From contig NC_086108.1 of the NCBI RefSeq assembly GCF_963921235.1, positions 38,008,001 through 38,072,000 on the forward strand: a stretch of DNA of 64,000 nucleotides, given 5' to 3'. Shown here one piece after another: positions 419 to 59,400 of the stretch. The notes under the pieces were generated by a model. It worked only from the letters and a program-made list of their open reading frames with translations, made no database searches and had not been told where the DNA came from. Source of the stretch: Mobula hypostoma. Taxonomy: Eukaryota. The translations under genes and the position numbers were made by a program. Within the stretch, counting starts at the first letter, position 1; each line of letters starts with the position of its first letter.

Positions 419-456
419 CAGTCGATGGTTCAGGCCGAGACCCTTCGTCACGACTA
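419..456 (-). ncRNA. Degenerate hammerhead copy
   Basis: Same position in PLE tail; core mutated (GTGACGA; GAAC). Confidence 0.6.
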
Positions 457-2200: not shown

Positions 2201-2238
2201 TAGTCCTGACGAAGGGTCTCGGCCTGAAACGTCGACTG
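2201..2238 (+). ncRNA. Minimal type I hammerhead ribozyme in PLE 3' region (intact core)
   Basis: TAGTC-CTGACGA-AGGGTCTCGGCCT-GAAA-CG-TC^GACTG; stem I AGTC/GACT, stem II AGG/CCT, minimal palindromic stem III. Confidence 0.85.
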
Positions 2239-10215: not shown

Positions 10216-10556
10216 CAGTGGTTCCCAACCTCCAGGCCGCGGACCGATACATTGCCGCGAAGAATGCAGCGGAGCAGCAGTAGTCGGAACGCACCCGTGC
10301 AGCGGTAGTCGGAACGCACCCGTGCAGCAGTAGTCGGAACGCACCCAGCACATCTTTAAGAAAAAAGCCAAAATAAACAAGCTAATTAATTAGGTGCCTC
10401 CCAGCACGTAAATGTCAGCCCAGATCATCTAATTAATTAGCTTGTTTATTTTGGCTTTTTTCTTAAAGATGTGCTGGGTGCGTTCCGACTACCGCTGCAC
10501 CATTGCATTCTTCATGGCAATGTCTCGGTCCATGGCCTGGAGGTTAGGGACCACTG
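10216..10556. mobile_element. hAT-type MITE, internally palindromic
   Basis: TIRs cagtggttcccaacctccaggcc / ggcctggaggttagggaccactg; 8-bp TSD ctttaggg/ctttaagg; ~60-bp internal inverted repeat and ~3x 25-bp tandem. Confidence 0.88.
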
Positions 10557-15346: not shown

Positions 15347-16093
15347 TAAGAATCTGAAATGGGTACTCTAATCCAGCTTCCTAGATTCAGGTTACAGCCC
15401 TAGTGCTGCAACTCCAGGAGGACTGTAGTTAAAGCCATGTTGAAAGTGACGGGGAGGAACGGGTGGAGTGGGAGACAGGGGTATTGTCCAGTGTCCCAGA
15501 GCAGCCATAGCCTCAATGCTACACACTCTCACCATCTCACCTACCCTCTTTTCCATTAAGGTCATCCATAAAACGCAGTTTGACCAAGCTACTAGTTACA
15601 ATTGCAAAATTAGTTTCCTAGTGAAGAGTCCTGCACTCTCTGGCTCATAAACATACATGGCAGTCCATTGCCAGTAAAATTGTCAAGAAGCAACACAATT
15701 GAATGTCACCAATTTGAAGGTATCTGTCAGTTCGGTTGCCAGCTCTAGTTGAAAAGGTTATTGAAAAATTTTGCGTAATCTCCTATTGCCAGTATATTTC
15801 AGTTTTCTAATGTCCATAGATTTTTTGCCAAGAGCCAAAAGGTCATTTTGTCTCTCTGCTAATCATAACTACACAGCTGTTGAAGTAAATAAGAGGGAAA
15901 ATATCACTCAAAACTTTCCTCCAATGTTGACAGACCAGAGTTCCAGCTATTCACGTTTATTCCCTCAAGCGTCTGGTACAATTAACCCCTGTGTACTATA
16001 TCACAGTAATGTTCATTATGCACATATCAGTATTTTTTCTGGTTCCACTGTTGATGACTGGAAGAGAATAAAGGAATACAGAAGTCTAATCTT

Positions 16094-17130
16094 ATAGAAA
16101 CATAGAAACATAGAAAATAGGTGCAGGAGTAGGCCATTCGGCCCTTCGAGCCTGCACCGCCATTTATTATGATCATGGTTGATCATCCAACTCAGAACCC
16201 CGCCCCAGCCTTCCCTCCATACCCCCTGACCCCCGTAGCCACAAGGGCCATATCTAACTCCCTCTTATATATAGCCAATGAACTGGCCTCAACTGTTTCC
16301 TGTGGCAGAGAATTCCACAGATTCACCACTCTCTGTGTGAAGAAGTTTTTCCTAATCTCGGTCCTAAAAGGCTTCCCCTCTATCCTCAAACTATGACCCC
16401 TCGTTCTGGACTTCCCCAACATTGGGAACAATCTTCCTGCATCTAGCCTGTCCAATCCCTTTAGGATCTTATACGTTTCAATCAGATCCCCCCTCAATCT
16501 TCTAAATTCCAACGAGTACAAGCCCAATTCATCCAGTCTTTCTTCATATGAAAGTCCTGCCATCCCAGGAATCAATCTGGTGAACCTTCTTTGTACTCCC
16601 TCTGTGGCAAAGATGTCTTTCCTCAGATTAGGGGACCAAAACTGCACACTATACTCCAGGTGTGGTCTCACCAAGGCCTTGTACAACTGCAGTAGTACCT
16701 CCCTGCTCCTGTACTCGAATCCTCTCGCTATAAATGCCGGCATACCATTCGCCTTTTTCACCGCCTGCTGTACCTGCATGCCCACTTTCAATGACTGGTG
16801 TATAATGACACCCAGGTCTCGTTGCACCTCCCCTTTTCCTAATCGGCCACCATTCAGATAATAATCTGTTTTCCTATTTTTGCCACCAAAGTGGATAACT
16901 TCACATTTATCCACATTAAATTGCATCTGCCATGAATTTGCCCACTCACCCAACCTATCCAAGTCACCCTACATCCTCTTAGCATCCTCCTCACTGCTAA
17001 CACTGCCACCCAGCTTCGTGTCATCCGCAAACTTGGAGATGCTGCATCTAATTCCCTCATCCAAGTCATTCATATATATTGTAAACAACTGGGGTCCCAG
17101 CACTGAGCCTTGTGGTACCCCACTAGTCAC
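16094..17130 (-). mobile_element. Young CR1 LINE, 5'-truncated
   Basis: ORF 16192-16962 (LYKALVRPHLEY..FWSP); (TTTCTATG)n tail; cttataga repeat at 16091-16098 and 17131-17138. Confidence 0.92.
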
Positions 17131-23001: not shown

Positions 23002-24577
23002 CGGGTTTCTCCCGCCATCCGAAGGTAGAGCGTTCCTATGAAACGGTTCGTAAGCCGAAATGTCGTAAAGTGAAGAAGCAATTACCATTTATTTATATGG
23101 GAAAATATTGTGAGCGTTCGCAGACCCAAAAATATCCTACCAAATCATGCCAAATAACACATAAAACCTAAAATAACAGTAACATATAGTAAAAGCAGGA
23201 ATGATATGATAAATACACAGCCTATATAAGGTAGAAATACTTTTCCACAATCATTACTGAACTGTTCTCTGGAGCGAAAGTCTCACGCAAGCGCCATCGG
23301 CAGAAAATCTCACGCAAGCGCTGTTGGCAAAAACACGCGCAAGCGTTCTCCAGTAACCTGTAAGCTATGAAGCTGCCAAATCATACCAAATAACGCATAA
23401 AAATACACAGCCGATATAAAGTAGAAATAATGTATGTACAGTGTAGTATCACTTACTGGAATCGGGACAGCGCCGAGCACACTGATGATGGTGTGTTAGA
23501 CTGAGTCGTTGTAGGTTGGGTGGTGCAGTGGCCCCCACCCTCCAGGCCGCTGAGCGATACATTGTCGCGAAGAACACAGGGGTCCAGCGGTAGCCGGGAG
23601 GTACACAGCACATCTTTAAGAAAAAAGCCGAAACAAACATGCTAATTAATTAGGTGCCGCCCATAATATTCGGCCCAGATCAGTGCCGATTTCCGATTGC
23701 ATTGTCTCTGCTCTGGGCCGACAATTACGTGTCGGCGGCACCTAATTAACTAGCATGTTTATTTCGGCTTTTTTCTTAAAGATGTTCTGTGTGCCTCCCG
23801 GCTACCTTTGCATTCTCCGCAAATCGCTATCTGTCCGTGGCCTGGGGGTTGGGGTGATGGGACACTGGGGTGTCATCTCGTCACCTGTTTCCACTAGAGC
23901 AGGCAGCTCATCTTCTCCTATGACTGCCCGCCTCGATGTCAAAGGTCGAGGTTCGTCGTCTGCTGTGGCTGATATGGCTCCTTCCTTGACTCCTGAGCCT
24001 CCCATATTTTTCTATCACACAGTTCTTTAATAAGGACTCAAACCATCCTGCAAATATCCCCTAAACAAATGTACCCTTTCAAAATTAAAGTCGTATTTTA
24101 TCATTACTCATTCGGTTTCAATTGTTATCCTTTTTTTCTTCCAATTGCATCAGCTCTTCATTTGTCAGTTCTTGGTGATGGGATGCCAAAACCTCTTCAA
24201 CATCATCTTCGTCAACGTCCACAACCCAAACTCACGTTGTCCTTACATCGTTCACCATGATCAAAACGCTTAATTATGTCTAGTTTTACTGTAAGTGTAA
24301 CACCCTTACGAGCTCTTTCAGGCTTTTCCGATACCATAGAACTCATCTTGCAAACGACTGCTCACAGGCTCATGTTTAAGCGATGCCGGCAAGAATCTGG
24401 GGGAGAGCAGCTGCTCGGGGCGCGCTGCCTTTTATCGCGCGGTGATTTTTTCGCGCCCTGAATTTTTTTTTCGTAACAGTGAAAACACCTTCTGAAAGCA
24501 AAAATAGGGTACTAATGTAGGTCTTTCGTAACAGTGAGGTTTTGTAAAGCGAACCTTCGGGAAGCGGGGGACACCTT
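23002..24577. mobile_element. Tigger/pogo-like non-autonomous DNA transposon with an embedded hAT-MITE derivative (~23526-23858)
   Basis: TA-flanked imperfect TIRs (cgggtttctcccgccatccgaagg / ccttcgggaagcgggggacacctt); internal part homologous to 10216-10556. Confidence 0.7.
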
Positions 24578-35985: not shown

Positions 35986-37043
35986 CAGGTGTGTCGCAGC
36001 TTGGTATGATAACTGCTGTGTGTAATGAACCAGATTTGATCAGAGAGCTTGAGGTAAAGGAACCCTGAGGAGTCAGTGATTATGATGTGATAGAATTCAT
36101 CCCTCCAGTTTGAGAGGGAGCAGCTGAAATCAGATGCACTAGTGGAGTAAAGGGTTCTACAGAGGCATGAGAGAGAAGCTGGCCAAAGTTGATGCTACGG
36201 GGACACTAGCAGGGATGACAGCAGAATAGTAATGGCTAGAGCTTCTGGGAGCAATTCAGAAGGTGTAGATCAATTCATCACAAAAAAAGAGGTACTCTAA
36301 AGGGAGGGTGATGAAACTGTGAAAGCTGACAATAGAAGTCAAAGGCAGCATTAAAGCAAAAGAGAGGACATACAATATAGCAAAACATAGTGGGAAGTTA
36401 GAGAAATGGGAAGCTTCTAAAAACCAAGAGAAGGCAAGTATGAGAGAAAAGATGAAATATGAAGTTAAGCTAGCCAATAATATAAAAGAAGATACCAATA
36501 TGTTTTCAGATATACAGTATAAAGAATAAAAGAGAAGCAAGAGTAGATATCAGATCACTGGAAATGACACTGGAGAGGTAGCAATGGGGGACAAAGAAAT
36601 TGCTCACAAACTCAATATGTATTTTGCATCAGTCTTTCCGATGGAAAACACCAACAATGACAGAAATTCAAGTGTGTCAGGGGGCTGATGTGAGTGTAGG
36701 TACTATAATTAAGGAGAAGGTGCTTGGGAATCTGAAAGGTCTGAAGGCAGATAATTCTTCTGGACCAGATGTACTACACCCCAGGGTTCTGATAGATGTC
36801 GCTTCAGATATTCTGGAGGCATTAGTAGAGATCTTTCAAAAATCGCTAGATTCTAGAATGGTTTTAGAGGACTGGAACTTTGCAAATGTCACTGCACTCT
36901 TTAAGAAGGGAGGCCAGTTAGTCTGACTCAGTGATTGGCAAGGAGTTAGAGCCCATTATTAAGTAAGAAGATTCAGGTTAAGCAACACACATCAAAGTTG
37001 CTGGTGAACGCAGCAGGCCAGGCAGCATCTCTAGGAAGAGGTA

Positions 37044-37081
37044 CAGTTGACATTTCAGGCTGAGACCCTTCGTCAGGACTA
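37044..37081 (-). ncRNA. Hammerhead copy with two substitutions around the cleavage site
   Basis: TAGTC-CTGACGA-AGGGTCTCAGCCT-GAAA-TG-TC^AACTG. Confidence 0.65.
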
Positions 37082-39283
37082 ACTGAAGGAAGAGTTAGTA
37101 AGAGATTTGAAAGTGGGAGGGGGAGGGGGAGATCCAAAATGATAGGAGAAGACAGGAGGGGGAGGGATAGAGCCAAGAGCTGGACAGGTGATTGGCAAAG
37201 GGGATATGAGAGGATCATGGGACAGGAGGCCCAGGGAGAAAGACAAGGGGGGGTGGGGAACCAGAGGATGGGCAAGGGGTATAGTCAGAGGGACAGAGGG
37301 AGAAAACGGAGAGTGAGGGAAAGAATGTGTGTATAAAAGTAAATAACAGATGGGGTACGAGGGGGAGATGGGGCATTAGCGGAAGTTAGAGAAGTCGATG
37401 TTCATGCCATCAGGTTGGAGGCTACCCAGATGGAATATAAGGTGTTGTTCCTCCAACCTGAGTGTGGCTTCATCTTTACAGTAGAGGAGGCCGTGGATAG
37501 ACATGTCAGAATGGGAATGGGATGTGGAATTAAAATGTGTGGCCACTGGGAGATCCTGCTTTCTCTGGCGGACAGAGCGTAGGTGTTCAGCAAAGCGGTC
37601 TCCCAGTCTGCGTCGGGTCTCGCCAATATATAGAAGGCCACATCGAGAGCACCGGACGCAGTATATCACCCCAGTCGACTCACAGGTGAAGTGTCGCCTC
37701 ACCTGGAAGGACTGTCTGGGGCCCTGAATGGTGGTAAGGGAGGAAGTGTAAGGGCATGTGTAGCACTTGCTCTGTTTACAAGGATAAGTGCCAGGAGGGA
37801 GATCAATGGGGAGGGATGGGGGGGAGACGAATGGACAAGGGAGTCGCGTAGGGAGTGATCCCTGCGGAAAGCAGAGAGAGGGGGGAGGGAAAGATGTGCT
37901 TAGTGGTGGGATACCGTTGGAGGTGGCGGAAGTTACTGAGAATAATATGTTGGACTCGGAGGCTGGTGGGGTGGTAGGTGAGGACCAGGGGAACCCTATT
38001 CTTAGTGGGGTGGCGGGAGGATGGAGTGAGAGCAGATGTACGTGAAATGGCGGAGATGCGTTTGAGAGCAGAGTTGATAGTGGAGGAAGGGAAGCCCTTT
38101 CTTTAAAAAAAGAGGACATCTCCCTTGACCTGGAATGAAAAGCCTCATCCTGAGAGCAGATGCGGCGGAGACGGAGGAATTGCGAGAAGGGGATGGCATT
38201 TTTGCAAGAAACAGGGTGAGAAAAGGAATAGTCCAGATACCTGTGAGAGTCAGTAGGCTTATAGTAGACATCAGTGGATAAGCTGTCTCCAGAGACAGAG
38301 ACAGAAAGATCAAGAAAGGGGAGGGAGGTGTCGGAAATGGACCAGGTAAACTTGAGGGCAGGGTGAAAGTTGGAGGCAAAGTCAACGAGCTCAGCATGCG
38401 TGCAGGAAGCAGCGCCAATGCAGTCGTCGATGTAAATGCCGCCACCTCCAACGGGATCCCACCACTAAGCTCCTCTTTCCCTCACCCTCCCTCTGCTTTC
38501 TGCAGTGATCGCTCCCTACGCGACTCTCTTGTCCATTCGTCCCCCCCATCCCTCCCCACTGATCTCCCTCCTGGCACTTATCCTTGTAAGCGGAACAAGT
38601 GCTACACATGCCCTTACACTTCCTCCCTTACCACCATTCAGAGCCCCAGACAGTCCTTCCAGGTGAGGTGACACTTCACCTGTGAGTCGACTGGGGTGAT
38701 TTACTGCGTCCGGTGCTCTCGATGTGGCCTTCTATATATTAGCGAGACCTGACGCAGACTGGGAGACCGCTTTGCTGAACACCTACGCTCTGTCCGCTAG
38801 AGAAAGCAGGATCTTCCAGTGGCCACTCATTTTAATTCCACATCCCATTCCCCATTCTGACATGTCTATCCACGGCCTCCTCTACTGTAAAGATGAAGCC
38901 ACACTCAGGTTGAGGAACAACACCTTATATTCCGTCTGGGTAGCCTCCAATCTGATGGCATGATCATCGACTTCTCTAACTTCCGCTAATGCCCCACCTC
39001 CCCCTCGTACCCCATCCATTATTTATTTATATACACACATTCTTTCTCTCACTCTCCTTTTTCTCCCTCTGTCCCTCTGACTATACCCTTTGCCCATCCT
39101 CTGGGTTCCCCCCCCCCTTTGTCTTTCTCCCTAGGCCTCCTGTCCCATGATCCTCTCATATCCCTTTTGCCAATCACCTGTCCAGCTCTTGGCTCCATCC
39201 CTCCCCCTCCTGTCTTCTCCTATCATTTTGGATCTCCCCCTCCCCCTCCCACTTTCAAATCTCTTACTAACTCTTCCTTCAGT

Positions 39284-39321
39284 TAGTCCTGACGAAGGAT
39301 CTCGGCCTGAAACGTCGTCTG
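39284..39321 (+). ncRNA. Hammerhead copy, intact core, one stem I mismatch
   Basis: TAGTC-CTGACGA-AGGATCTCGGCCT-GAAA-CG-TC^GTCTG. Confidence 0.7.
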
Positions 39322-40304
39322 TACCTCTTCCTAGAGATGCTGCCTGGCCTGCTGCGTTCACCAGCAACTTTGATGTGTGTTGCTTGAATTTCCAGCATCT
39401 GCAGAATTCCAGTTGTTTGCGAGATTCAGGTTAAGGTTACTTGGAGGTATGTGACAAAGTAGGCCAAAGTCAGTATGGCTTCCTTCAGGGAAAATATTGC
39501 CAGACAAATCTGTTGGAATTCTTTGAGGAAATAACAGGATGGCTAAGTAAAGGAGAGTCAGTGAATGTTATGTAGTTGGATTTTCATAAGTCATTTGACA
39601 AGGTGTTGCACATGAGGCCGCAAAACAAGACAAGGATCCATGGTATTAGAGGAACTATACTACCATGGATAGGAGATTGGCTGAGAGGCAGGGACCTCCT
39701 CCCTCCCTCACTACCATTCAGGACAAACAGTCCTTCCAGGTGTGGCAACACTTCACCTTTGAGTCTGATGGGGTCATATACTATATCTAGTGCTCCCGGT
39801 GTGCCCTCCTATATATAGATGGGTCCCGGGTAGAAAGGGAGAACGCTTCGCCGAGCACCTATGCTCCATCCGCCTGAAAAAGCGGTATCACCTAGTGGCC
39901 ATTCATTTTAATTCCACTTCCCATTCACAATCCAATATGTCCATCCATGGTCTTCTCTACTGTCACAATGAGGCCACACTCAGGTTGGGGGGACAACACC
40001 TTACATTGTCATAAGCAGGTGGCTGGGAACGGACCCAAGTGCAAGACACAGACACCGAAGTACTAGGGACAGGACTAGGATACAGGGTGAGGGCAAGGAC
40101 ATGGACACGAAAACCAGGAACCTGGAACAGGACTGGACAACAGAGCTAGGAGCCCGGGCTTGAACTCTGAGCCAGAGACTGGGCAAGGACCAAGTACCTG
40201 GGTCTTGCCTCTGGCTTGGACCCCAGAACTAGGCAAGGACGGGGCTTGGCTGGCAGGCTGGACGAGGCTGGAGTCTTAGAGACTTGAGGCGAGGCTTGGC
40301 AGGA

Positions 40305-40416
40305 GGCAGGAGGCTGGAGTCTTCAGGCTTGAGGCTAGGCAGGAGGCTGGAGTCTTCAGGCTTGAGGCTAGGCAGGAGGCTGGAGTCTTCAGGATTGAGG
40401 CTAGGCAGGAGGCTGG
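40305..40416 (+). repeat. 33-bp minisatellite in LTR (~3.4 copies)
   Basis: Unit ggcaggaggctggagtcttcaggcttgaggcta. Confidence 0.9.
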
Positions 40417-41554
40417 TTTCCATGGGCATGGTGCAGTTCCCCTGGGCAGAGCATAGTTCTCCATCTGACGGAGGCAAGGGACAGGAAGGGACCAAACCAA
40501 CCGCAGGTAACGGCAAGACGGCCTGACTTACTCGATGGAGGCTAGGGACAGGAAGGGACAGAAACAACCACAGGGTAATGGCAAGACGGCCTGACTTACC
40601 CGGCGGAGGCAAGGGACAGGAAGGAAGCTCGGTACGAGGCGGCTCCAGGACAAGACAGCAAGACAAGGCAAGGCTTCAGGCAATGCAAGGCAAGACAGAA
40701 CTACAGGCGAGGCAAGAATTACCGGCAAGACAAGGCAGGGCTTCAGGCCAGGAAACAGAAGGCAGGGGAAGGGGTAGAAGGAGTAAGGACAAGAAAAATC
40801 CAGCCCCACGCCCCAGTCTCTGAAGGTATTTATGCAGCCAGCCCCAACGAGCATCAGCTGCCTCAATTAGAGCTCAACAAGAACAGAAACAGGGTAGACA
40901 GGAAACCCTGGAGCAAGGGTCGATGGACCGGACCGTGAACTGGAATATGGACCTCACGGACCGGACCATAACAGTACCCCAATACCCCACCTCCCCCCAC
41001 CCCCCCCACGGGAGCCTCCTGGTGACCAAACAGGGTATCCAGACTATGGACAACCCGGGCGGGTGGGAGGGTATTTAAACAGAAAGGAACCCCAGGTGGC
41101 AAGAGGAAAATGACAGTGCCTGTGTTGCTGGGTCCATGGTTGGCTGGATTGTTATTTTATAAGGAGGTGGCTGGGAATGGACCCATGCAAGACACAGACA
41201 CTGAAGTACCAGGGACAGGACTGGGATACAGGGTGAGGGCAAGGACATGGACACAAAAACTGGGAACCCGGGACAGGACTGGACAAGAGAGCTAGGAGCC
41301 CGGGATTGGACTCCGAGCCAGAGACTGGACAAGGACCCAATACCTGGGTCTTGCCTCTGGCTCAGACCCCAGAACAAGGCAAGGATGAGGCTTGGTTGGC
41401 AGGCAGGACGAGGCTGGAGTCTTAGAGATTTGAGGCGAGGCTTGGCAGGAGGCGGGAGACTTGAGGCAAGAATTGGCAGGAGGCAGGGGATGAGGCGAGG
41501 CTTCAGGCTTAGGGCTAGAGATTCAAGGTGAGGCTTGGCAGGAGGCAGGACAGA

Positions 41555-41750
41555 GCTGGAGTCTTCAGGCTTGAGGCTAGGCAGGAGGCACGAGTCTTCA
41601 GGCTTGAGGCTAGGCAGGAGGCACGAGTCTTCAGGCTTGAGGCTAGGCAGGAGGCACGAGTCTTCAGGCTTGAGGCTAGGCAGGAGGCTGGATTCTTCAG
41701 GCTTTAGACTAGGCAGGAGGCTGGAATCTTCAGGCTGGAGGCTAGGCAGG
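41555..41750 (+). repeat. 33-bp minisatellite in second LTR (~6 copies)
   Basis: Same unit, with a cac variant in three consecutive copies. Confidence 0.9.
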
Positions 41751-43384
41751 ATGCCACCCCTTCACCATTTCCATCCCCCTTTCGTCTCCCTCTGGTGCTC
41801 CTCCCACCTTTTCCTTCTTCAATGGCCTTCTGTCTCCTCTTATTAGGTTCCCCCTTCTCCAGCCCTATATCTCTTTCATCAATCAACTTCGCAGCACTTT
41901 ACCTCACCCCTCCCCTTCCCGGTTTCACCTGTCACATTGTGCTTCTCCTCTCCTCGCCCAACTGTTTAATTCTACTCCTCATCTTTTTCCTCCAGTCCTA
42001 CCAAAGGGTCTCAGCCCAAAATGTCCGTCCACTGTACTCTTTTCCATAGATGCTGCCTGACCTGCTGAGTTCCTCCATCATTTTCTATGTGTTACCAACA
42101 GTCATATGCAGCTTAAGAAATATTAGCATATAAGATAACATTAAGCATACTCACAAAACAATATATATAACATAGCCCAAGTCCCTGAGCCCATGGATGT
42201 TGACGGCATGAATAAGCCTGCAGCAGTCTGCAGAAGAATGTAATCCAGTTTGTCTTCCACAGAGTGCCACACCGTCTCCAGTATCACCTCTCCTGGGTGG
42301 CTGCAACAGGCAACACCACGGTACGAGGCCCAGCCCATGCTGTGACGAGGTCACGCAGCTCCCCCACCATCAATCCCACCATTAACTCAGTGAACTGGAC
42401 TTGCTGCATAACACATTATAAATGTCCAACAGGGTCCTGCATCACAAGAAAAATGACTAAGACTACCATTTGTTGTTAGACTGCATATCACCCTCATGCA
42501 TCCAGCTCCAACGCCTCTATGTTGCAGGCAGCAATGTGGTCCGCACCAAGTCCAGCTCCTCTGCCAATGGACAACTCGCTGATGGGATAGACCTACAGTG
42601 CTTGAAGTTGTTAATATCTGTCAATGTCTTGCAATTGTAAAAAAGACAATTACAAAAGACAATAACACCTTTGGGTGTCCTCATATAGGCCAGTGCATTC
42701 GAGCACAAGATTTGGATGATGGAATTGATGGCTTTGTAGCCAAGTTTGAAGGTGATACAAAGATAGGTGGAGGGGCAGATAGTATTGAGGAAGCAGGGAG
42801 TCTGCAGAAGGATTTCAATAGACTAGAAGAATGAGCAAAAAAGTGGTAGATGTTATGCAGTGTAGGGAAGTGCCTGACCATGCACTTTGGTAGATGGAAA
42901 AAGGTGTAAAATATGCAAGTCCTTGTGCAGGATTCCCTAAAGTTAACTTGCAGGGAAAGTCAATCTTAAGAAAGGTAAATGGAATATTAGCATTCATTTC
43001 AAGAGGTCTATAATATAAAAGCAAGAATGTAATTTAGAGGCTTTATAAGGAATTAGTCAGAACATATTTCGAGTATTATAAAGCAATTTTGGCCCCCTTA
43101 TCTAAGAAAGGATGTGCTGGCACTGGAGGTTGTCCAGAGGAGATTCAGGAGCATGTACAATGAGTTCATGTATAAGGAGTGTTTGATGGTTCTGGGCCTG
43201 GAGTTTAGAAGAATTAGGGTGATCTCATTGAAACCTATCGAATATTGAAAGGCCTATCTAGAGAGGTAGAGAGGACATAGATAATGCAAACACGAGGAAT
43301 TCTGCAGATGCTGGAAATTTAAGCAACATGCATCAAAGTTGCCGGTGAACGTAGCAGGCCAGGCAGTATCTCTAGGAAGAGGTA

Positions 43385-43422
43385 CAGTCGACGTTTCAGG
43401 CCGAAACCCTTCGTCAGGACTA
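43385..43422 (-). ncRNA. Minimal type I hammerhead ribozyme (intact), sense to KCNT2 pre-mRNA
   Basis: TAGTC-CTGACGA-AGGGTTTCGGCCT-GAAA-CG-TC^GACTG. Confidence 0.85.
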
Positions 43423-43473
43423 ACTGAAGGAAGAGCTAGTAAGAGATTTGAAAGTGGGAGGGGGAGGGGGAGA

Positions 43474-44788
43474 AGCTCTCCACTTCTTTTTGGATTCCAG
43501 ACTTAATCAGTTCCCCTCTACCACCACTCTGCTCCATCTAGCGGAATTAGTCCTTACTCTTAATAATTTCTCCCTTGGCTCCTCCCACTTCCTCCAAACT
43601 AAAGGTGTAGCAATGGGCACCCATATGGGTCCTAGCTATGCCTGCCTTTTTGTTGGCTTGTGGAACAACCTATATTCCAAACCTATTCTGGTATCTGTCT
43701 CCCACTTTTCCTTTGCTACATTGATGACTGCATTGGAGCTGCTTCCTGCATGCATGCTGAGCTCGTTGACTTCATTATCTTTGCCTCCAACTTTCACCCT
43801 GCCCTCAAGTTTACCTGGTCCATTTCCGACACCTCCCTCCCCTTTCTAGATCTTTCTCTCTCTATCTCTGGAGACAGCTTATCTACTGATGTCTACTATA
43901 AGCCTACTGACTCTCACAGCTATCTGGACTATTCCTCGTCCCACCCTGTCTCTTGCAAAAATGCCATCCCCTTCTCGCAATTCCTCTGTCTCCGCCGCAT
44001 CTGCTCTCAGGACGAGGCTTTTCATTCCAGGATGAGGGAGATGCCCTCCTTTTTTAAAGAAAGGGGCCTCCCTTCCTCCACCATCAACTCTGCTCTCAAA
44101 CGCATCTCCCCCATTTTACGCATATCTGCTCTCACTCCATCCTCCCGTCACCCCACTAGGAATAGGGTTCCCCCGGTCCTCACCTACCACCCCACCAGCC
44201 TCCGGGTCCAACATATTATTCTCCGTAACTTCCGCCACCTCCAACTGGATCCCACCACTAAGCACATCTTTCCCTCCCCACTCTCTCTGCTTTCTGCAGG
44301 GATGGCTCCCTACACGACTCCCTTGTCCATTCGCTCCCCCCCCCCATCCCTCCCCACTGATCTCCCTCCTGGCACTTATCCTTGTAAGCGGAACAAGTGC
44401 TACACATGCCCTTACACTTCCTCCTTTACCACCATTCAGGGCCCCAGACAGTCCTTCCAGGTGAGGCGACACTTCACCTGTGAGTCGGCTGGGGTGATAT
44501 ACTGCGTCCGGTGCTCTCGATGTGGCCTTCTATATATTGGCGAGACCCGACGCAGACTGGGGAGACCGCTTTGCTGAACACCTACGCTCTGTCCGCCAGA
44601 GAAAGCAGGATCTCCCAGTGGCCACACATTTTAATTCCACATCCCATTCCCATTCTGACATGTCTATCCACGGCCTCCTCTACTGTAAAGATGAAGCCAC
44701 ACTCAGGTTGGAGGAACAACACCTTATATTCCGTCTGGGTAGCCTCCAACCTGATGGCATGAACATCGACTTCTCTAACTTCCACTAA
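43474..44788 (+). pseudogene. Frameshifted PLE polyprotein: RT, Cys-rich linker, GIY-YIG endonuclease (Neptune-like)
   Basis: QTKGVAMGTHMGPSYA, YIDDC, CKRNKCYTC, GVIYCVRCSRCGLLYIGET, RFAEH, ATHF; frame changes near 43660 and 44560. Confidence 0.88.
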
Positions 44789-45086
44789 TGCCCCACCTCC
44801 CCTTCATACCCCATCCATTATTTATTTATATACACACATTCTTTCTCTCTCTCTTCTTTTTCTCCCTCTGTCCCTCTGACTATACCCCTTGCCCATCCTC
44901 TGGATTTCCCCCCCCTCCCCCTTTTCCTTCTCCCTGGGCCTCCTGTCCCATGATCCTCTCATATCCCTTTTCCCAATCACCTGTCCAGCTCTTGGCTCCA
45001 TCCCTCCCCCTCCTGTCTTCTCCTATCATTTTGGATCTCCCCCTCCCCCTCCCACTTTCAAATCTCTTACTAGCTCTTCCTTCAGT

Positions 45087-45124
45087 TAGTCCCGATGAAG
45101 GGTCTCGGCCCCAAATGTCGACTG
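45087..45124 (+). ncRNA. Degenerate hammerhead copy
   Basis: Core mutated (CCGATGA; CAAA). Confidence 0.55.
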
Positions 45125-45683
45125 TACCTCTTCCTAGAGATGCTGCCTGGCCTGCTGCGTTCACCAGCAACTTTGATGTGTGTTGCGTGAGGACATAGAT
45201 AAGATGTTTCTTATAGTGAGGGTGTCGAGGATGAGAGGAAACAACCTCAGCATAGAAGTACGTTCCGTTAAAAAGAGGCGAGCAAGAATGTCTTTAACAA
45301 GATGGTGATGATTCTGTGAAATTCATTGTCACAGATTGATGCAAAGGCCAAATGATTGTGTATATTTAAAGCAGAAGCTGAAAGGCTCTTGGTTGGTAAG
45401 GGTGTCAAAAGTTATGAAAAGAAGGCAAGAGAATAGTTTTGCAAGGGATAATAAATCAGCATGTTGGAATGGCAGAGCAGACCCAATGGGCCTAATGGCC
45501 TGATTCTACTCCTATATCTTATGATCACATAAGAAGGCACTCTTGACCTCACAATCCACCTTGTTATCACCTTGCACCATACTGTCCGTCTGCACTCTCT
45601 CTATAACTGTAACATCTTATTCTGCATTCTTTTATTGTTTTTCCTTGTATGATATCAAAACATGGAAACAATGATTTGATCTA

Positions 45684-47879: not shown

Positions 47880-50800
47880 AGAATAATACAGCACAGTACA
47901 AGCCCTTTAATCTAACCCCACCCTCCCACAAAGCCCAGCATTTGTCTTTCATTCATGTGCTTAAGAGATGGTTAAGTGCCCCTAATGAATCACAATCTAC
48001 TACCATCACCCCTGGAGTGCATTCCATGCACTTACCACTCCATGTGTAAGAAAACCAACAGCTGACATCCCCGCAAACTTTCCACCAACATCTTAAAATT
48101 ATGCCTCCTCGTATTAGCCATATCTGCCCTGCGAAGAAGTCTCCAGCTGTCTGCTCTATCTATGTTTCTTATCATCTTGTATGCTTCTATCAATCACCTC
48201 TCATCCTCCTTCTCTCAAAAGAGAAGAGTGCTAGCTTGCTCAACATATCCCCATAATACATGCTCTCTAATCCCAGCCTTATCCCCATGACATGCTCTCT
48301 AATTCATGTCCCCCTCTGGCTCTCCTAAATTCATTCTTAATCTCCTTCCTTGCCACTTTGTAACTCTCGAGAGCTCTGAGTGATCCTTGCTTTCTAAACC
48401 TTTTGCAAGCTTTTATCGTGCTCTGGACTGGATGTTCCACATCTCTTGTCAACCATGGTTCCTTAACCCTACTATCCTTCCCCTGCCTCAATGGGACAAT
48501 CCTATCCAGAAAATCATGCACGTTCCCTAAACACCATCCACATTTCTGTTGTACATTTCCTTGAGTATATCCGTTCCCAATTTATGCTCCCCAGTTCCAG
48601 CCCAAGAGCGTCATAATTCACCCTCCCCTCAATAAATGCTTTCCCATACCAACTCCTCCTATACCGTTTCAAGGCTATGGTAAAGATTAGGGAATTGTGG
48701 TCACTGTCTTGGAAATGTCCGCCTACCAAGAGATCTGTCATCTGACCATGTTCATTGTCTAGTACCAGATCTAGTTTGGTATCTCCTCCAGTTGGTCTGT
48801 CTACATATTGCATCAGGAATTTTTCCCGGTCACACCTAATAAACTCTACCCCATGCAAACTCTTTGCACTGAGGATGTGCCAATCAATATTAGGGAAGCT
48901 GAAGTCAACTCTGTTATTTTTTGCATCTTTCCAAAATCTGCCTCTGGATCTGCACTTCTTTGTCTCTGTTTCTATTGAGGAGTCTATAAAATACTCACAA
49001 TAGAGTAATTGATCCCTTCTTATTTCTGACTTCCTCCCACACTGACTCAGCAGATGGTCCATTCATGATATCCTCACTTCCTGCAGTTATGAAACTCTCC
49101 CTGTTCATCAATGCCACTATTTTACGTCCCTCCCTGTCCCTTTTGAACAAATTAGCCAGAAAAAGTGGCTCACCTGAGGACTGGGAGAAATTCAGAGTTC
49201 AGCAGAGGAGGACAAAGGGCTTAATTAGGAAGGGGATAAAAGATTATGAGAGAAAACTGGCAGGGAACATAAAAACTGACTGTAAAAGCTTTTATAGATA
49301 TGTAAAAAGGAAAAAACTGGTAAAGACAAATGTAGGTCCCCTACAGACAAAAACAGGTGAATTGATTATGGGGAGCAAGGACATGGCAGACCAATTGAAT
49401 AATTACTTTGGTTCTGTCTTCACTAAGGAGGACATAAATAATCTACCAGAATTAGTAGGGGACAGAGGGTCCAGTGAGATGGAGGAACTGAGCGAAATAC
49501 ATGTTAGTAGGGAAGTGGTGTTAGGTAAATTGAAGGGATTAAAGGAAGATAAATCCCCAGGGCCAGATGGTCTGCATCCCAGAGTGCTTAAGAAAGTAGC
49601 CCAAGAAATAGTGGATGCATTAGTGATAATTTTTCAAAACTTGTTAGATTCTGGACTAGTTCCTGAGGATTGGAGGGTGGCTAATGTAACCCCACTTTTT
49701 AAAAAAGGAGGGAGAGAGAAACCGGGGAATTACAGACCGGTTAGCCTGACGTCAGTGGTGGGGAAACTGCTGGAGTCAGTTATCAAAGATGTGATAACAG
49801 CACATTTGGAAAGCGGAGAAATCATCGGACAAAGTCAGTATGGATTTGTGAAAGGAAAATCATGTCCAACGAATCTCATAGAATTTTTTGAGGATGTAAC
49901 TAGTAGAGTGGATAGGGGAGAACCAGTGGATGTGGTATATTTGGATTTTCAAAAGGCGTTTGACAAGGTCTCACACAGGAGATTAGTGTGCAAACTTAAT
50001 GCACACGCTATTGGGGGTAAGGTATTGATGTGGACAGAGAATTGGTTAGCAGACAGGAAGCAAAGAGTGGGAAAAAACAGGACCTTTTCAGAATGGCAGG
50101 CAGTGACTAGTGGGGTACCGCAAGGCTCAGTGCTGGGACCCCAGTTGTTTACAATATATATTAACGACTTGGATGAGGGAATTAAATGCAGCATCTCCAA
50201 GTTTGCGGATGACACGAAGCTGGGTGGCAGTGTTAGCTGTGAGGAGGATGCTAAGAGGATGCAGAGTGACTTGGATAGGTTGGGTGAGTGGGCAAATTCA
50301 TGGCAGATGCAATTTAATATGGATAAATGTGAAGTTATCCACTTTGGTGGCAAAAATAGGAAAATAGATTATTATCTGAATGGTGGCTGATTAGGGAAAG
50401 GGGAGGTGCAATGAGACCTGGGTGTCATTATACACCAGTCATTGAAAGTGGGCATGCAGGTACAGCAAGCGGTGAAAAAAAGCGAATGGTATGCTGGCAT
50501 TTATAGCGAGAGGATTCGAGTACAGGAGCAGGGAGGTACTACTGCAGCTGTACAAGGCCTTGGTGAGACCACACCTGGAGTATTGTGTGCAGTTTTGGTC
50601 CCCTAATCTGAGGAAAGACAACCTTGCCATAGAGGGAGTACAAAGAAGGTTCACCAGATTGATTCCTGGGATGGCAGGACTTTCATATGAAGAAAGACTG
50701 GATGAACTGGGCTTGTACTCGTTGGAATTTAGAAGATTGAGGGGGGATCTGATTGAAACGTATAAAATCCTAAAGGGATTGGACAGGCTAGATGCAGGAA

Positions 50801-52065
50801 GATTGTTCCCGATGTTGGGGAAGTCCAGAACAAGGGGTCACAGTTTGAGGATAAAGGGGAAGCCTTTTAGGACTCAGATTAGGAAAAACTTCTTCACACA
50901 GAGAGTGGTGAATCTGTGGAATTCTCTGCCACAGGAAACAGTTGAGGCCAGTTCATTGGCTATATTTAAGAGGGAGTTAGATATGGCCCTTGTTGCTACG
51001 GGGATCAGGGGGTATGGAGGGAAGGCCGGGGCAGGGTTCTGAGTTGGATGATCCGCCATGATCATAATAAATGGCGGTGCAGGCTCGAAGGGCTGAATGG
51101 CCTACTCCTGCACCTATTTTCTATGTTTCTATGTTTCTATGTATCTAAACCCCAGAACTTCCAGCAGCCTTTCCTGCCGTCTTGACAGCCGTATCTCTGT
51201 AATGGTCACAACGTCATAGTTTCATGTACTGAGCCATGCTCTAAATCCATCGACTTTGCTCCTGATACCTCTAGCATTAAAAACAGACACATTTCAATCC
51301 ATCCAACTGACTGCAATTGTGCCCTTTCTATTGTCTATCCTTCCTCACAATCTCCTTACACACTACATCTACCTTTACACAAACTGCACTTTCCCGAGTC
51401 TCTGAGCTATCACTCTGGTTCCTAAATTAATTTAAACCCTCACAAAGAGCTCTAGCAAACCTGCCCACAAGGATATTGCCCTCCCCCTGAAAATCAGGTG
51501 TAACCCATCCCTTCTGTACAGGTCATACACTCCCAAGAAGAGATCCCAATGATCAACAAATCTGAAATCCTGCCCCCTACATCAATTCTTCAGTCACACA
51601 TCCATCTGTCAAATTATCCTATTCTTACCCTCACTGGCACAATGCAGAGGCAGTAAGCAAGAGATTGCCACCCTTGAGATTCTACTTTTCAGCTTCCTAC
51701 CTAACTCCTCATATTACTCTTCAAGACCTCATCCTTTTTCGTACCTATACCGTTGGTACCAATATGTTCCATGACTTCTGGCTGCTTACCTTCCCCCTTA
51801 AGAATGGTGTGGATCTGATCTGAGATGTCCCTGACCCCTGCACCTGGGAGGAAACATAGCTATCACAAATCAATTTCACATCTACAGAATCTCTTGTCTG
51901 TTCCTTTAATTATTGAATCCCCTCTCACCACTATTCTCCACTTCTCCCCATATCCCTTCTGAGCCTCGGAGCCAGACTCAAGTGTCAGAGGTCTGGTTGT
52001 TGTGGATTTCCCTGGCAGGTTGCTTCTTCTCCCCCCACCCCACCACCCCAACAGTTTCCAAAGTG
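47880..52065 (-). mobile_element. Old CR1 LINE with deletions, interrupted by a young CR1
   Basis: DFSFPNIDW..PTGGDTKLDLVL..DSDHN (APE endonuclease); ORF1-like IVVRGDSIIKGTDKRFC near 51870-51940. Confidence 0.8.
49146..51142 (+). mobile_element. Young CR1 LINE, 5'-truncated
   Basis: RT ORF to 50390 ([28 protein letters not shown]), ORF 50491-51042, (TTTCTATG)n tail. Confidence 0.93.
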
Positions 52066-52955: not shown

Positions 52956-54988
52956 AGGTCTCTGATCATTAGTCCATGTATCCGGGCTATTAGTCTGGTA
53001 ACCATCACCGTAATACCATTATAAACTATTGCCTCTGTGTTGACCACTGACTAATTCATACAAAATATAACTTTTTGCTATTGTTCTCTCTCTACAACTA
53101 ACCGAAGAGGTTATCTTAAGGGTTCTATCTGCTGCCATATAGGACAGAAGGTACAACCCACTCTTCCTACTCAATCAGAAACTGGGTCTAAGATAAAGAA
53201 GTACAGTTATTTCAAAATGTCTGCTTGAAAAAAAGGTAACAGGGAGTTACGTATACGTTATTAACCTGCAATATCGGCTAATTAGCTATTGCTCTTCATT
53301 TGCTGCTGGGCATTCTGTCAGAATGAGCTGGGAGTCAGTAGACAAAAGACCTCTGTACATGCATGAAGGGGTTAAAAATAACACATTATCAGTGTAATTC
53401 CAAGTCAAATTAATTTAGACGACAGACCTCCTTTTTTTGGACTTAAACTCAGATCACTATGGCAGCTGTCCGTCCACTTCTGAGATAATCTCGGAACCTC
53501 AGCTACAAATGTGGCACACTTCATAGTCTACTGCAGATTCACGCAGAGAATTAAGCAGCACTATGCCAGTGCAGACTGCACACATGCCCTAGGATGCTCC
53601 ATTGTGTAATATTCTGGATGACACCACATCAAAGAGCTTCTTGTTGTGCTTACAAAGTTCATTTGTAAGCTCTGAATCTTAAGGCACAGCTTGTGGCTGC
53701 CTCAGTACTTTCTCTACCTTAGTAATGCTCATAGTTTAGTGAACTGCTGGGGCCAGCAATGACATGTACCTTAGGAGCACTAGGTACCACAGTTCCTCCA
53801 GTCCCAGCACTTTATGCTACATGCAGCAGGAACACTGAAATGGTGTTAGTTTGTTAATCTTGCATGATCAGACAAAATCCGTTGTTGTGTACATGGCAGT
53901 ACAGAGCATGGAACAGAGTTGTGGCTCTATCACCTACATTCAGTGCATGGATAATGAAATTCTTTATCTCTGGGGAAAATAATACATCATCTTATGGCAG
54001 TCAGCAAAGCCAACAGTCTTTTGATTGTGGGGAAAAAAACATATAGGAAATAAAGTTTGACAACTTCACTATGCTCCAAAAAATGTAGGTGCTGAAGGGG
54101 TAAGAACCAATTGTAAATCCTGGGACAGGCATCATGCCATATGTCAAAACTTAACCCTCACTAACAGCTGTTCATTGTCAAACTGATCATGTCCAAGCAC
54201 AATTTTACTTTGATATTCCTGTCTGCAAATAATGTATAATTGAGTAACTGAATTCAGAGCAGGGCCCTATTTATTGGATTTGTTCCTTTACAGAGGAGTA
54301 AGATAATTGTGTGACATGCCAGAATTGAATTTAGCTTTAATTTTTCATCATATCATTTCCCATTATGCCTGAGTGATTCCTCTCTTTTCCAATAAAGCAT
54401 TATTGCAATCTCACTAAATTAATGCATTTGACAAATGCATTACAGTTCAATTATATTATGACTTTATATAGTATTTCTGCAGAGGGATGACCTCTAAAAA
54501 AGACAGTTCAGTGATGATGAGTTTCTGACTAATCATTATTAAACTATGCTTCCTATCTGTGTAAAAAAGAAAATTCTTCCTTTTATCAGAAAGAAAAGAA
54601 GTTCTATAATCACTATTTTGGTGAGTACTATTGGACTAGGTGACTAAATTAAATCCCACTCTAATTTTACCTGCCGTAAAATTCCTATTTTGCCATTTAT
54701 TGAAATATTCAGCACACTATGAAATGGCCTTACAAAACAGATGAGTGTAAGACAGCAGGCAGTGGTAATTCAATGAAAAAATGTTGTTTGCTTTGTATGG
54801 ACTCCATGTATGAGAATAAGGGGCGCAGAGATATATTTGCTAGAATCTATAAAACACACTTTTCAGATAAAGATAAAGGTAGCTTCTGACAGATTCGGAA
54901 TTAATCAAGTTGTAGAGTCATTTCAACAGCATGGACATAGGCCCTTCAATCTACCACATCAGCAGCAAACGTATGCCCACCTATACTT

Positions 54989-55056
54989 TGATGTGTGTTC
55001 GTTTACCAGCAACTTTGATGTGTGTTCATTTACCAGCAACTTTGATGTGTGTTACT
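54989..55056 (+). repeat. TSD-flanked tandem of a 27-nt PLE-tail segment (~2.5 copies)
   Basis: Units 55000-55026 and 55027-55053, c(g/a)tttaccagcaactttgatgtgtgtt; flanking repeat cccacctatactt at 54976-54988 and 55057-55069. Confidence 0.88.
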
Positions 55057-56464
55057 CCCACCTATACTTGCCTGAATTAATTTCCTGTCCCTCAACACCG
55101 TGCTCATTCAAGTACTTGCCTTGATGCCTTTGGAATACTGTTACTGTTTGGGCCTCCTCTACCAGCTCTGGCAGCTCATTAAAGATACCACCTACTTTAT
55201 GAAAAATTGACCCCTCAGATCTCCATTAAACCGCCTCTCTCCCACCGAAGTGCACCTTATGAACTTTGCTGCTGGTAAATTATTTCTGCAGCTCCAAGGG
55301 ATTTTTTAAATATCAAGGCTGCCCAAAATCCATCCTCAGAATTTAATTCTCTGTCAGTAACATTCTATCATAGCATAGATTCTTTGTACACTGCATTAAA
55401 GTCAAAGGAATGAATTTCAGAGTTAGAGTAAAACATGCCAACTATAACTAAATGTTTTGTTAACATTACTAACTAGGGATGAATTTCCAGCACTTGACTG
55501 TATGAGACTACTAGAGTATAATTTATTCTGAATGTAAATTAAAGTTGAGACCACGATGTGACATCTTATATAATGATTAAGGTAAAATAAAGAAAATGAT
55601 CTGAAACTCCTTCATATGCTGCAGCTGATGGAGAAAAACACAACAGTTACAAGTCTGGCAACTGTCCAAACATGCACCACAATCTCATCACTCCAAGGAA
55701 AATTAAGTTCTCCATTCACTGGTACCTAAATACCGCCTCAATTGAGACAGGCATCGCTGTTCTAAAAATAAAAATGGAGCAAATTAAGTTAAAAGGCTTC
55801 CAGAGTTACTGTTGATATAATGAAACATTACTTTAAGTTCTGGATGTAACCAATGCAAAGATGGAGCTTGACATGATTTCACACTGTCTTCTCACTGCTT
55901 ATCCAATTCTGATTTCAATGACAAGTGACACCTCATATTTTTACTTAATGTGAAGATAAAACTACCATACATCAAAGCAAAATGTGTATTTTAACTGTCA
56001 TATATAATTCTAATTTGCTGAAAGAAAGTATTACCCAAAATTATTTGGCTATTGACTTAGTCCTGAGAATAATTCTCTCAACTTGTAAACAGGGCAATGT
56101 TATTCTCAAAAATAACAATATCTCAAATGTCAAATTTAAACAACTGCAAATGAACTGCTTTCAGAAATCCATAACATTTGAGACACAGATGGAATGATCT
56201 TGCCATAGCTCATTATTTAAAAACAATTTACATGAATTAAATCACCATACATGGATAATTTCCCATTCAATTGGAAATAATTCTTTTGTTTTTGCAATTA
56301 TCATGAACAAGACATGTCAATGTAAATCATCGTTTTGAAATATCAAGATATTATGAGTGCAGAATGAATAGGTAACTGATATTATTTCTGTAATTTACAG
56401 ATGTAGCATCATTATTCTATATTTTAGTAGAAGTATTGCTGAAAAACTAGCATTTATCATGCTG

Positions 56465-59400
56465 TGTCTTCCGGTTAAGATGGCTCTACCAAATATGTGC
56501 AACAAGTTTCTGGTTGTCAAAAGCTAAGAACTATGACTAAAAACATCACTAAAAATACCTTTTCTGAGGTAAATTGTGTTAAATTATCATCACAAACAAT
56601 GAAGGAGTGAGCGATGAAAGGCGAGTTTAGGGTTGAATCAATGCAGTTGGAGTTCCGATGCCCATAGAGCTTGCCTGGGAATGAGGCTGGATCGCTCTAG
56701 GTGCCACGAGGAGAAGTCGGGGCCCGGGCAGAGGAGATTTGATTGTGACGTGCATACAACTGGCCTAGGTGCGAGACTAGTTCACTCTGGGCACCGAGCT
56801 GATTTGAAGAGCTTGAGGGTGGCTTCTGGCTGGGTGACAAAATCTGGGCCTGAAGCCAGTCACTGAGCAGTGTGGTGTAGGCCTGGGGCCTTTCACAGCA
56901 GTGGTGCCTGGGTCCTAGTGCAATGTACAATTCGCTGTTTAGACAATTTAAACACTGGCCCATATTGGAAACGAGAGCTGATTTCGCTCGCTAACTGCAA
57001 TGTTCACTCCTCTCTCCAGGGGTGCGAAACCCTTCATTGTTCCACCGTTGAGTCAATATAAGCACCATCCCAGATAAACCGAAAAGACAGGGTTTCAGTC
57101 AGGACATGAGTCAACTGCACTCGTTCTCTGCGATGGCCATCTCCATGGGGCTGAGGCTATGAAGATTGTCCGGCTTGCTGTGCTCTATGCCCACTAATAT
57201 GAGGAGCTGATAAGCGAGGCTTTGGACTTACTACAGGCTGCACCAGGGTTTGGATCTGAGGACTCATTTCGGAATGTTGCTGATCACTTCAATTGTTTGT
57301 ATGACTTGTATTTTTTTTAGAAACATAGAAACATAGAAAATAGGTGCAGGAGTAGGCCATTCGGCCCTTCGAGCCTGCACCGCCATTCAGTATGATCATG
57401 GCTGATCATCCAACTCAGAACCCTGTACCAGCCTTCCCCCCCATACCCCCTGATCCCTTTAGCCACAAGGGCCATATCTAACTCCCTCTTAAGTATAGCC
57501 AATGAACTGGCCTCAACTGTTTCCTGTGGCAGAGAATTCCACAGATTCACCACTCTCTGTGTAAAGAAGTTTTTCCTCATCTTGGTCCTAAAAGGCTTCC
57601 CCTTTATCCTCAAACTGTGACCCCTCATTCTGGACTTCCCCAACATCGGGAACGATCTTCCTGCATCTAGCGTGTCCAATCCCTTTAGGATTTTATATGT
57701 TTCAATAAGATCCCCCCTCAACCTTCTAAATTCCAATGAGTATAAGCCTAGTCGATCCAGTCTTTCATCATATGAAAGTCCTGCCGTCCCAGTAATCAAT
57801 CTGGTGAACCTCCTTTGTAGTCCTTCTATGGCAAGGATGTCTTTCCTCAGATTAGGGGACCAAAACTGCACACAATACTCCAGGTGTGGTCTCACCAAGG
57901 CCTTGTACAACTGCACTCTAGTACCTCCCTACTCCTGTACTCGAATCCTCTTGCTATGAATGCCAGCATACCATTCGCCTTTTTTACCACCTGCTGTACC
58001 TGCATGCCCACTTTCAATGACTGGTGTATAATGACACCCAGGTCTCGTTGCACCTCCCCTTTTCCTAATCGGCCACCATTCAGATAATAATCTGTTTTCC
58101 TGTTTTTGCCACCAAAGTGGATAACCTCATATTTATCCAAATTAAATTGCATCTGCCGTGAATCTGCCCACTCACCTAATCTATCCAAGTTACCCTGCAT
58201 CCTCTTAGCATCCTCCTCACAACTAACAGTGCCGCCCAGCTTCGTGTCATCCGCAAACTTGGAGATGCTGCATTTAATTCGCTCATCTAAGTCATTAATA
58301 TATATTGTAAACAACTGGGGTCCCAGCACTGAGCCTTGCGGTACCCCACTAGTCACTGCCTGCCATTCTGAAAAGGTCCCGTTTATTCCCAATCTTTGCT
58401 TCCTGTCTGCCAACCAATTCTCTATCCATATCAATACCTTACCCCCAATATTGTGTGCTTTAAGTTTGCACACTAATCTCCTGTGTGAGACCTTGTCAAA
58501 AGCCTTTTGAAAATCCAAATATACCACATCCACTGGTTCTCCCCTATCCACTCTACTAGTTACATCCTCAAAAAATTCTATGAGATTCGTCAGACTTGAT
58601 TTTCCTTTCACAAATCCATACTGACTTTGTCCGATGATTTCACCGCTTTCCAAATGTGCTGTTATCACATCTTTGATAACTGACTCTAGCATTTTCCCCA
58701 CTACCGATGTCAGGCTAACCGGTCTATAATTCCCCGGTTTCTCTCTCCCTCCTTTTTTAAAAAGTGGGGTTACATTAGCCACCCTCCAATCCTCAGGAAC
58801 TAGTCTAGAATCTAAAGAGTTTTGAAAAATTATCGCGAATGCATCCACTATTTCTTGGGCTACTTCCTTAAGCACTCTGGGATGCAGACCATCTGGTCCT
58901 GGGGATTTATCTGCCTTTAATCCCTTCGATTTACCTAACACCACTTCCCTACTAACATGTATTTCCCTCAGTTCCTCCATCTCACTGGACCCTCTGTCCC
59001 TTACTATTTCCAGAAGATTATTTATGTCCTCCTTAGTGAAGACAGATCCAAAGTAGTTATTCAATTGGTCTGCCTTGTCCTTGCTCTCCATAATCAATTC
59101 ACTTGTTTCTGTCTGTAGGGGACCTACCTTTGTCTTAACCAATCTTTTTCTTTTCACGTATCTATAAAAGCTTTTACAGTCAGTTTTTATGTTCCCTGCC
59201 AGTTTTCTCTCATAATCTTTTTTCCCTTTCCTAACTAAGCCCTTTGTCCTCCTCTGCTGGACTCTGAATTTCTCCCCGTCCTCAGCTGAGCCACTTTTTC
59301 TGGCTAATTTGTATGCTTCTTCTTTGGAATTGATACTATCCCTAATTTCCCTTGTCAGCCACGGGTGCACTACCTTCCTTCATTTATTCTTTTGCCAAAC

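Follow-up and report, generated by a model that had tools for sequence, protein, structure and literature searches.

The array locus at 54976..55069 of the window (the whole stretch of 64,000 nucleotides that was analysed) consists of a 68-bp insert between 13-bp direct repeats. The insert (54989-55056) derives from the tail of a Penelope-like element (PLE) and comprises an 11-nt partial unit, two full 27-nt units and the letters act, and the flanking target site duplication (TSD) reads cccacctatactt (Table 1). The initial annotation had described this arrangement correctly. PLE positions are counted from the last T of gtgtgtt (-1) and the next G (+1), one unit being -27..-1, and synthesis is read from right to left on the + strand, as target-primed reverse transcription would imply. 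TRF assigned the array a period of 27 and 2.6 copies. The 27-mer had 10 matches within the window and 0 across 100 shuffles, which excludes chance as their source. The two junctions between units (-1/-27) are identical and blunt, with 0 nt of microhomology, and 15 nt of direct repeat are present that slippage or unequal exchange could use. At the 5' junction, the last four letters of the left TSD, actt (54985-54988), equal PLE -15..-12; given this overlap, the partial unit measures 11-15 nt. The target is an old interspersed repeat that by eye extends to the left of the insertion too. The locus has no evident function, and its value is that of one clean and dated member of a class of stuttered insertions.

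Table 1. Features of the array locus and of the PLE reference copy in the window
Feature	Position	Strand	Remarks
Left TSD copy, 13 bp	54976..54988	+	Present once in organism F, whose orthologue is empty
Partial unit, PLE -11..-1	54989..54999	+	Probably the cDNA piece made last
Full 27-nt unit, PLE -27..-1, subfamily T at 55004	55000..55026	+	
Full 27-nt unit, PLE -27..-1	55027..55053	+	T at 55031, CpG-type G>A at 55028; probably made first
act, PLE +1..+3 (family: gct)	55054..55056	+	3' end of the insertion, within the first of two 3'-end clusters
Right TSD copy	55057..55069	+	Direct repeat of the left copy; empty orthologue in organism F
Old interspersed repeat, right flank of the target	55066..55252	.	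69-79% identity to 39 other places
Longer copy with tail, used as reference	38432..39421	+	Non-coding end: hammerhead-like core and predicted stem-loop
Decayed frame, same family	37376..38464	-	Presumably RT-like YIDD motif; C-terminal GIY-YIG match

The decayed frame of the same family carries a YIDD motif, which we take to be that of a reverse transcriptase (RT), and its match to GIY-YIG (Pfam PF01541) had an E value of 2.5e-4 and 21.7 bits, under the cut-off of 22.6. In Atlas clusters, GIY-YIG and RVT_1 were present in a minority of members. The hammerhead-like core, with its predicted stems, lies at -98..-61; an Rfam search gave no match at the gathering score, and a PDB sequence search returned nothing meaningful. 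The 3' ends of the family fall into two clusters, -2..+7 and +36..+40, corresponding to the optional tail of EN+ PLEs, and some tails are shortened to +24..+29 by a subfamily difference. These clusters support two earlier proposals, that the insertion is of PLE origin and that it was primed at an internal start site. Three inverted insertions of the family are found in the window (314-2320, 36962-39421 and 43282-45190), each with the tail on a single arm, and the genome holds many more, with TSDs of 11-16 bp, which is a feature of EN+ PLEs. The short arms of the three had been said to stop at the very motif where the insert ends; they stop near it, at +4, +2 and -7 to -2, rather than exactly on it.

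Other repeats were also observed in the window. Short tandem arrays with periods of 25, 27, 33, 68 and 33 occur at 10274-10346, 23276-23345, 40304-40416, 40467-40624 and 41559-41751, respectively; the ones near 10322-10500 and 23589-23806 are within or next to inverted repeats that belong to another family. Three copies of another retroelement, 93-96% identical and ending in 8-nt repeats, are located at 16092-17130, 49147-51140 and 57315-59312.

Both full units share a C>T variant, as first noted, whereas a G>A change at a CpG is present in the right unit alone. Among 48,314 exact 31-mer copies genome-wide, 47,836 carried C and 478 carried T. A linked set of four variants was found in 12 of 21 T arms and in none of 68 C arms, and the T copies listed (first 100) included at least seven inverted pairs with T on both arms, several of which differ at CpGs. 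The shared T is therefore largely an allele of the source subfamily. As proof of mechanism the shared variant was rejected; it fits reiteration by the RT and later DNA duplication equally and does not discriminate between them. No source copy that was already tandem was seen among the seven fetched T/T pairs.

To date the insertion, contigs from public runs of organisms B, C and F were aligned to the locus. In organism F, 54975 is joined to 55057 with 81 bases skipped and 13 letters that fit either side, which represents an exact empty site and confirms the TSD (52 differences in 1,025 aligned bases). Organism C is also empty, with 136 bases skipped, 57 letters between and 79 differences in 958 bases. 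In the closer relative, organism B, the array is present: a gap-free contig runs across 54925-55045 and reaches 55053, with 14 differences over 1,121 bases of flank and array; two other runs, X13 and X17, gave no coverage here. Two of these are inside the array, at positions obscured by other copies of the family, and three unaligned letters at the contig end hint at a difference at 55054-55056. Since organism B carries the array without a gap, at least 2.6 units predate the split of organisms A and B. Neither a single-unit nor a 1.6-unit allele within the same TSD was seen in one sample each of A and B, with F and C being empty. Missing depth of the family tail in F and C does not prove absence. 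A paralogous empty site in the genome was sought as well, and none was present among the 40 scored of 142 candidates. It should be noted that run X6 of organism B also contains a 51-nt contig (depth 16, placed on window positions 54985-55024) with the same -1/-27 junction and a consensus-C unit on its left; it represents a further locus or another allele of organism B, and its exact match is absent from the organism A assembly.

The initial annotation had placed the insertion at an internal chromosomal break; a pre-existing break is not supported. The flanks are intact, and the 13-bp TSD has the modal length of the family: in a hand count over the called TSDs measuring at least 11 bp (46 in total), 20 were of 13 bp and 38 of 13-15 bp. 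On this ground, cleavage by the endonuclease of the element itself is the most likely origin of the break.

We then asked whether similar arrays exist elsewhere, using eight exact-match junction patterns over the genome; the reversed-pattern controls all gave 0. After repeated matches and one duplicated locus had been merged, 49 distinct loci with 79 backward junctions in the PLE tail were obtained. Most of them are short, with two units in 31 loci, three in 10, four in 6 and the maximum of six in 2. Periods ranged from 14 to 136 nt. Restarts clustered at -1..+6, +13..+16, +20..+24, +35..+40 and -24, and those at +14..+16, +21..+23 and -24 are not primary start sites. Stops ranged from -97 to +9, the commonest being -27 (14 of 79, a count partly forced by the search patterns), with further clusters at -13, -22..-24, -38..-44 and +8, and they often recur within a single array. 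Because such patterns force the windows of restart and stop, only contrasts inside one window count. Among junctions that stop near -27, +8..+13 was accessible yet empty, whereas seven loci restart at +14..+16 (post hoc p 5e-4). An upstream control pattern of the same geometry yielded 2 loci versus 7 at the start site, which indicates that the first site is favoured but not special.

The junction of the present locus was found at no other place in the assembly by exact-match search and accounts for one of the seven loci in its pattern class. A candidate second copy (G000:C2:207215665) was rejected, being an inversion seam. Eighteen of the 49 loci have several junctions, and by eye 11 of these clearly differ between cycles (for example, restarts at +15 and +6 and stops at -24, -24 and -26 in L008), another 2 vary by one or two T's, and the remaining 5 are uniform (L004, which is the present locus, L080, L086, L092 and L111). 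L080 contains a 33-nt tail unit (+8..+40) three times. A small RNA circle was considered as template and rejected, as junctions vary both from locus to locus and inside a locus, and the beginning of several arrays lies outside the unit. Of 70 distinct junctions, 44 were blunt or had extra letters, most often a T where a single letter was added, 15 had 1-2 nt of microhomology and 11 had at least 3 nt, compared with about 9% expected at random. Some of the 44 are point mutations beside the junction; the predominance of this group fits priming without homology.

To estimate how frequent such arrays are, unselected copies cut at -22..-29 were collected. There were 562 matches, of which the first 100 were listed; 16 of these were left out by eye as intact copies with a small insertion, and 15 of the 84 fetched were intact too. 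Among the matches listed, 7 of 69 truncated rows (6 loci) had a downstream restart, and the truncations were spread over -22..-29 with a mild peak. These figures suggest that arrays of this truncation class number on the order of 100, a fraction of a percent of the family.

The position of the arrays within their insertions bears on when they arose. The left-most piece ended short of -60, at the TSD or an inversion seam, in 43 of 49 loci, compared with 4 of 30 unselected copies (Fisher p 3e-11), a sample that required a match to -32 and missed the shortest copies. It follows that arrays form at insertion rather than within copies that are already old. A late duplication in DNA would be expected mostly in long copies, which make up 26 of the 30 unselected ones, and thus it is not the origin of the class. 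The stutter class is therefore rare and formed at insertion, and the present locus is one member of it; the timing applies to the class and not to the second unit of this particular array.

With regard to the template, seven loci were informative (L094, L106, L108, L110, L112, L115 and L117). In each of them, a later piece holds at least 11 nt of tail that lies 3' of the first start and has no other copy in the same insertion; a TSD was found in five, and none was found for L094 and L115. L106 has a 13-bp TSD and lacks an inverted arm; its pieces start at +1 for the first and at +22 for the second. L117 contains the pieces -29..+2 and +13..+40 in permuted order with nothing repeated, and L110 has a forward piece (+8..+23) that takes up from the end point of the inverted arm, permuted and with no second copy. 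Slippage of DNA in cis cannot make the last two, since they are permuted without repetition. Letters absent from the insertion itself point to an RNA template acting in trans. The RNA held by the RT would be the simplest source, the alternatives being a second RNA or an ectopic DNA copy. Two further loci (L074 and L076) flagged as reaching beyond the first start were rejected by eye, and L101 and L105 are ambiguous as template evidence, their inverted arm holding the tail.

What does this imply for the array at 54976..55069? The start and both restarts fall in the first 3'-end cluster of the family (-2..+7). In the explanation that we narrowly favour, the array represents one PLE retrotransposition in which the RT made two restarts from one site of a single RNA. 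The RT would have primed at the internal start site (+3), reverse-transcribed some 30 nt of its RNA and let go, then restarted twice at the +3 site of that RNA, after which the cDNA end would have joined the target through 4 nt of microhomology. The right-to-left order of synthesis, RNA as the template and one RNA for all cycles are the presumptive parts of this scheme. That the RT re-primed at least once here appears likely. The proposal that the RT copied its RNA again, as made in the initial annotation, holds as a behaviour of the family at insertion, whereas this locus taken alone is not decisive: the cDNA made first already spans both restarts and the junctions are identical, so that by itself the locus is also compatible with copying of DNA.

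The best-surviving alternative takes up this point. A single RT restart would have produced 1.6 units, and later slippage of the DNA, or unequal exchange, across the 15-nt repeat would have added a unit before the split of A and B. The locus does offer two identical junctions and the necessary direct repeat, and five of the 18 multi-junction arrays are uniform in period by eye. Remodelling at the DNA level does occur in such arrays, as indicated by L083, where a private variant is shared by two adjacent units of six and junctions alternate; no other signature of this kind was present among the 18 multi-junction loci. However, the time available was limited, the array being already gap-free in organism B, junctions that differ between cycles are common in the family (11 of 18), and the 1.6-unit intermediate was not seen in the one sample each of A and B. 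We consider such a later addition possible but rather unlikely.

Host repair was also considered. Iterative templated insertions are a known product of polymerase theta, and a theta-like activity might have re-copied the nascent cDNA end or the second strand during 5' joining. In its favour, arrays are located at 5' and inversion junctions, and the final join at this locus uses 4 nt of microhomology. On the other hand, its internal junctions have none, no more than 11 of the 70 distinct family junctions show at least 3 nt, about 9% being expected at random, seven loci need sequence that their own insertion DNA lacks, and an RT start site coincides with both restarts here. We consider this explanation unlikely, and less probable than a later addition in DNA.

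The initial annotation had drawn a parallel with telomerase. In its strict form, a defined 27-nt template with an alignment region and a boundary would be copied processively at a chromosomal break. Kinship of the PLE RT with that of telomerase is indeed described (PMC8557442), stops are most frequent at -27, where a predicted helix has its base, and they often recur within one array. A defined template is nevertheless difficult to reconcile with periods of 14-136 nt, six units at most and a junction occurring at one locus versus 48,314 exact 31-mer copies. The junction shows neither A-B-A' redundancy nor any microhomology for re-alignment, unselected truncations are spread over -22..-29 with only a mild peak among the matches listed, the count at -27 is in part a product of the patterns, and the TSD is of the family type. 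An A-B-A' alignment region, a fixed 5' boundary, a constant unit and a pre-existing break are all absent here. Telomerase-type addition is thus already contradicted at the family level, and we regard it as very improbable for this locus. Finally, short tandem duplications arise in any DNA, but that a single short insertion was doubled twice long afterwards, without any restart, is hardly credible, since it needs two microhomology-free events in a 30-nt insert and would place arrays mostly in long copies, yet 43 of 49 are terminal.

Restart of the RT on its own RNA has several parallels in known systems. According to the reports cited, EN+ PLEs form partial tandems, have an inverted 5'-truncated copy and carry an optional 30-40-bp tail (PMC8557442, PMC3846280). 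The arrays described here resemble them in the tail, inverted arms, TSDs, head-to-tail re-copying and truncation of the upstream piece (PMC8557442, PMC3846280), and differ from the tandems as described there in the tail pieces of 14-136 nt, the up to six cycles and some restarts off the primary sites. How PLEs build tandem and inverted insertions is named as unresolved in one of these reports (PMC8557442). For PAc (Poseidon of Anolis carolinensis), the in vitro work describes a PLE protein that nicks both strands and an RT that starts at two internal RNA sites without primer homology (PMC11167929). The two 3'-end clusters observed here match these two starts (PMC11167929), and the likeness extends to starts that bound the tail, homology-free priming and extension of both strands (PMC11167929). 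The main text of that report describes no repeated re-priming or product ladder, and its sequencing supplements may bear on this point (PMC11167929). No report of multi-cycle re-priming by a PLE was found in the literature searched, a scope mostly without subscription titles and the PAc supplements.

Among other retroelements, the RT of the eel LINE UnaL2 re-copies the start region of its RNA beside a stem-loop by template slippage (PMC1636434), which its authors called reminiscent of telomerase (PMC1636434). UnaL2, as described, slips on a 5-nt repeat in its RNA, whereas the PLE re-copies a non-repetitive template without an alignment repeat. In L1 'twin priming and 3' switching', the cDNA end moves downstream on the same RNA at an inversion junction (bioRxiv 10.1101/2024.08.27.596794), and L110 and L112 resemble this outcome. 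The L1 report presents three single events, in contrast to the repeated cycles found here, which also occur without an inverted arm. Telomerase and DRT10 share a related RT and the sequence of copying, release and re-engagement on RNA (PMC12632851); as described, they need A-B-A' alignment and a 5' boundary and add a constant unit processively (PMC12632851), none of which applies here. The PLE partial tandems, UnaL2 slippage and L1 3' switching are accordingly closer kin than telomerase and DRT10. In our best reading, which draws on sequence comparisons, restart would be imprecise, would use no alignment region and would usually be over after one or two cycles, and the stutter would be a by-product, ranking among the smallest of the PLE partial tandems.

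A fold of the tail might contribute to where synthesis stops and resumes. The predicted stem-loop pairs -19..-14 with -3..+3, -26..-22 with +4..+8 and -32..-28 with +12..+16, with pair probabilities of 0.73-0.99; the last helix has 0.73-0.98, and the -27 stop lies at its base. A weaker pairing is predicted between -42..-39 and +20..+23. One copy from the window gives the same fold (z -0.33), and the T allele keeps its pair as U-G. No unusual folding stability was detected (z -0.33 for the RNA and z -1.78 for a 31-nt cDNA hairpin), and thus the argument from these helices is one from pair probabilities only. Several stop and restart clusters lie at predicted helix edges, a match made post hoc, and +8 has no restarts. 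We would tentatively suggest, while thinking it on balance doubtful, that the PLE RT carries out genuine repeat synthesis in several cycles on a single RNA, guided by the tail stem-loop and with no alignment region. The enzyme would stall at the helix bases (-13, -22, -27 and -42) and re-engage at the helix 3' ends (+3, +16 and +23) or at the tail end. If true, a loose eukaryotic form of repeat-addition processivity would exist in the retroelement closest to telomerase, and restart steered by a stem-loop would also build the partial tandems of PLEs.

Apart from any fold, the stutter scars make a countable prediction for the in vitro system, namely backward jumps on one RNA, at named sites and without homology. 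If confirmed, the eukaryotic retroelement closest to telomerase would be able to release its template and re-engage with it, and some minisatellites would have their seeds laid down at insertion.

Several individual loci deserve mention. L083 (G000:C12:144052227-144055256) is a micro-insertion with a 14-bp TSD in which the 33-nt tail unit (+8..+40) is present about 5.6 times; it is the most telomere-like array found and also the one with signs of DNA-level remodelling. Source variants are common to the units of the same array. This is also seen at L085 (G000:C1:60706168-60709201), an inverted insertion with a 16-bp TSD and four units of period 42, in which every unit and the inverted arm carry the T allele and the stop is at -27 as in the array described here. 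L076 (G000:C76:29477804-29480827) consists of two pieces from visibly different PLE subfamilies within one 11-bp direct repeat, possibly a jump between two RNAs. L078 and L079 (G000:C99, about 1.796 and 2.067 Mb), separated by 270 kb and oppositely oriented, carry one and the same four-unit insertion between identical flanks, and this pair is a segmental duplication or an assembly duplicate. L064 (G000:C18:139392011-139395042) has a fixed restart at -24 and shrinking pieces, with stops at -97, -71, -54 and -45, and L065 also restarts at -24. The 136-nt jump is found in L113 (G000:C18:141230415-141233440), from -97 to the tail end, and many unselected copies end at -87..-99 too, near the front of the hammerhead motif.
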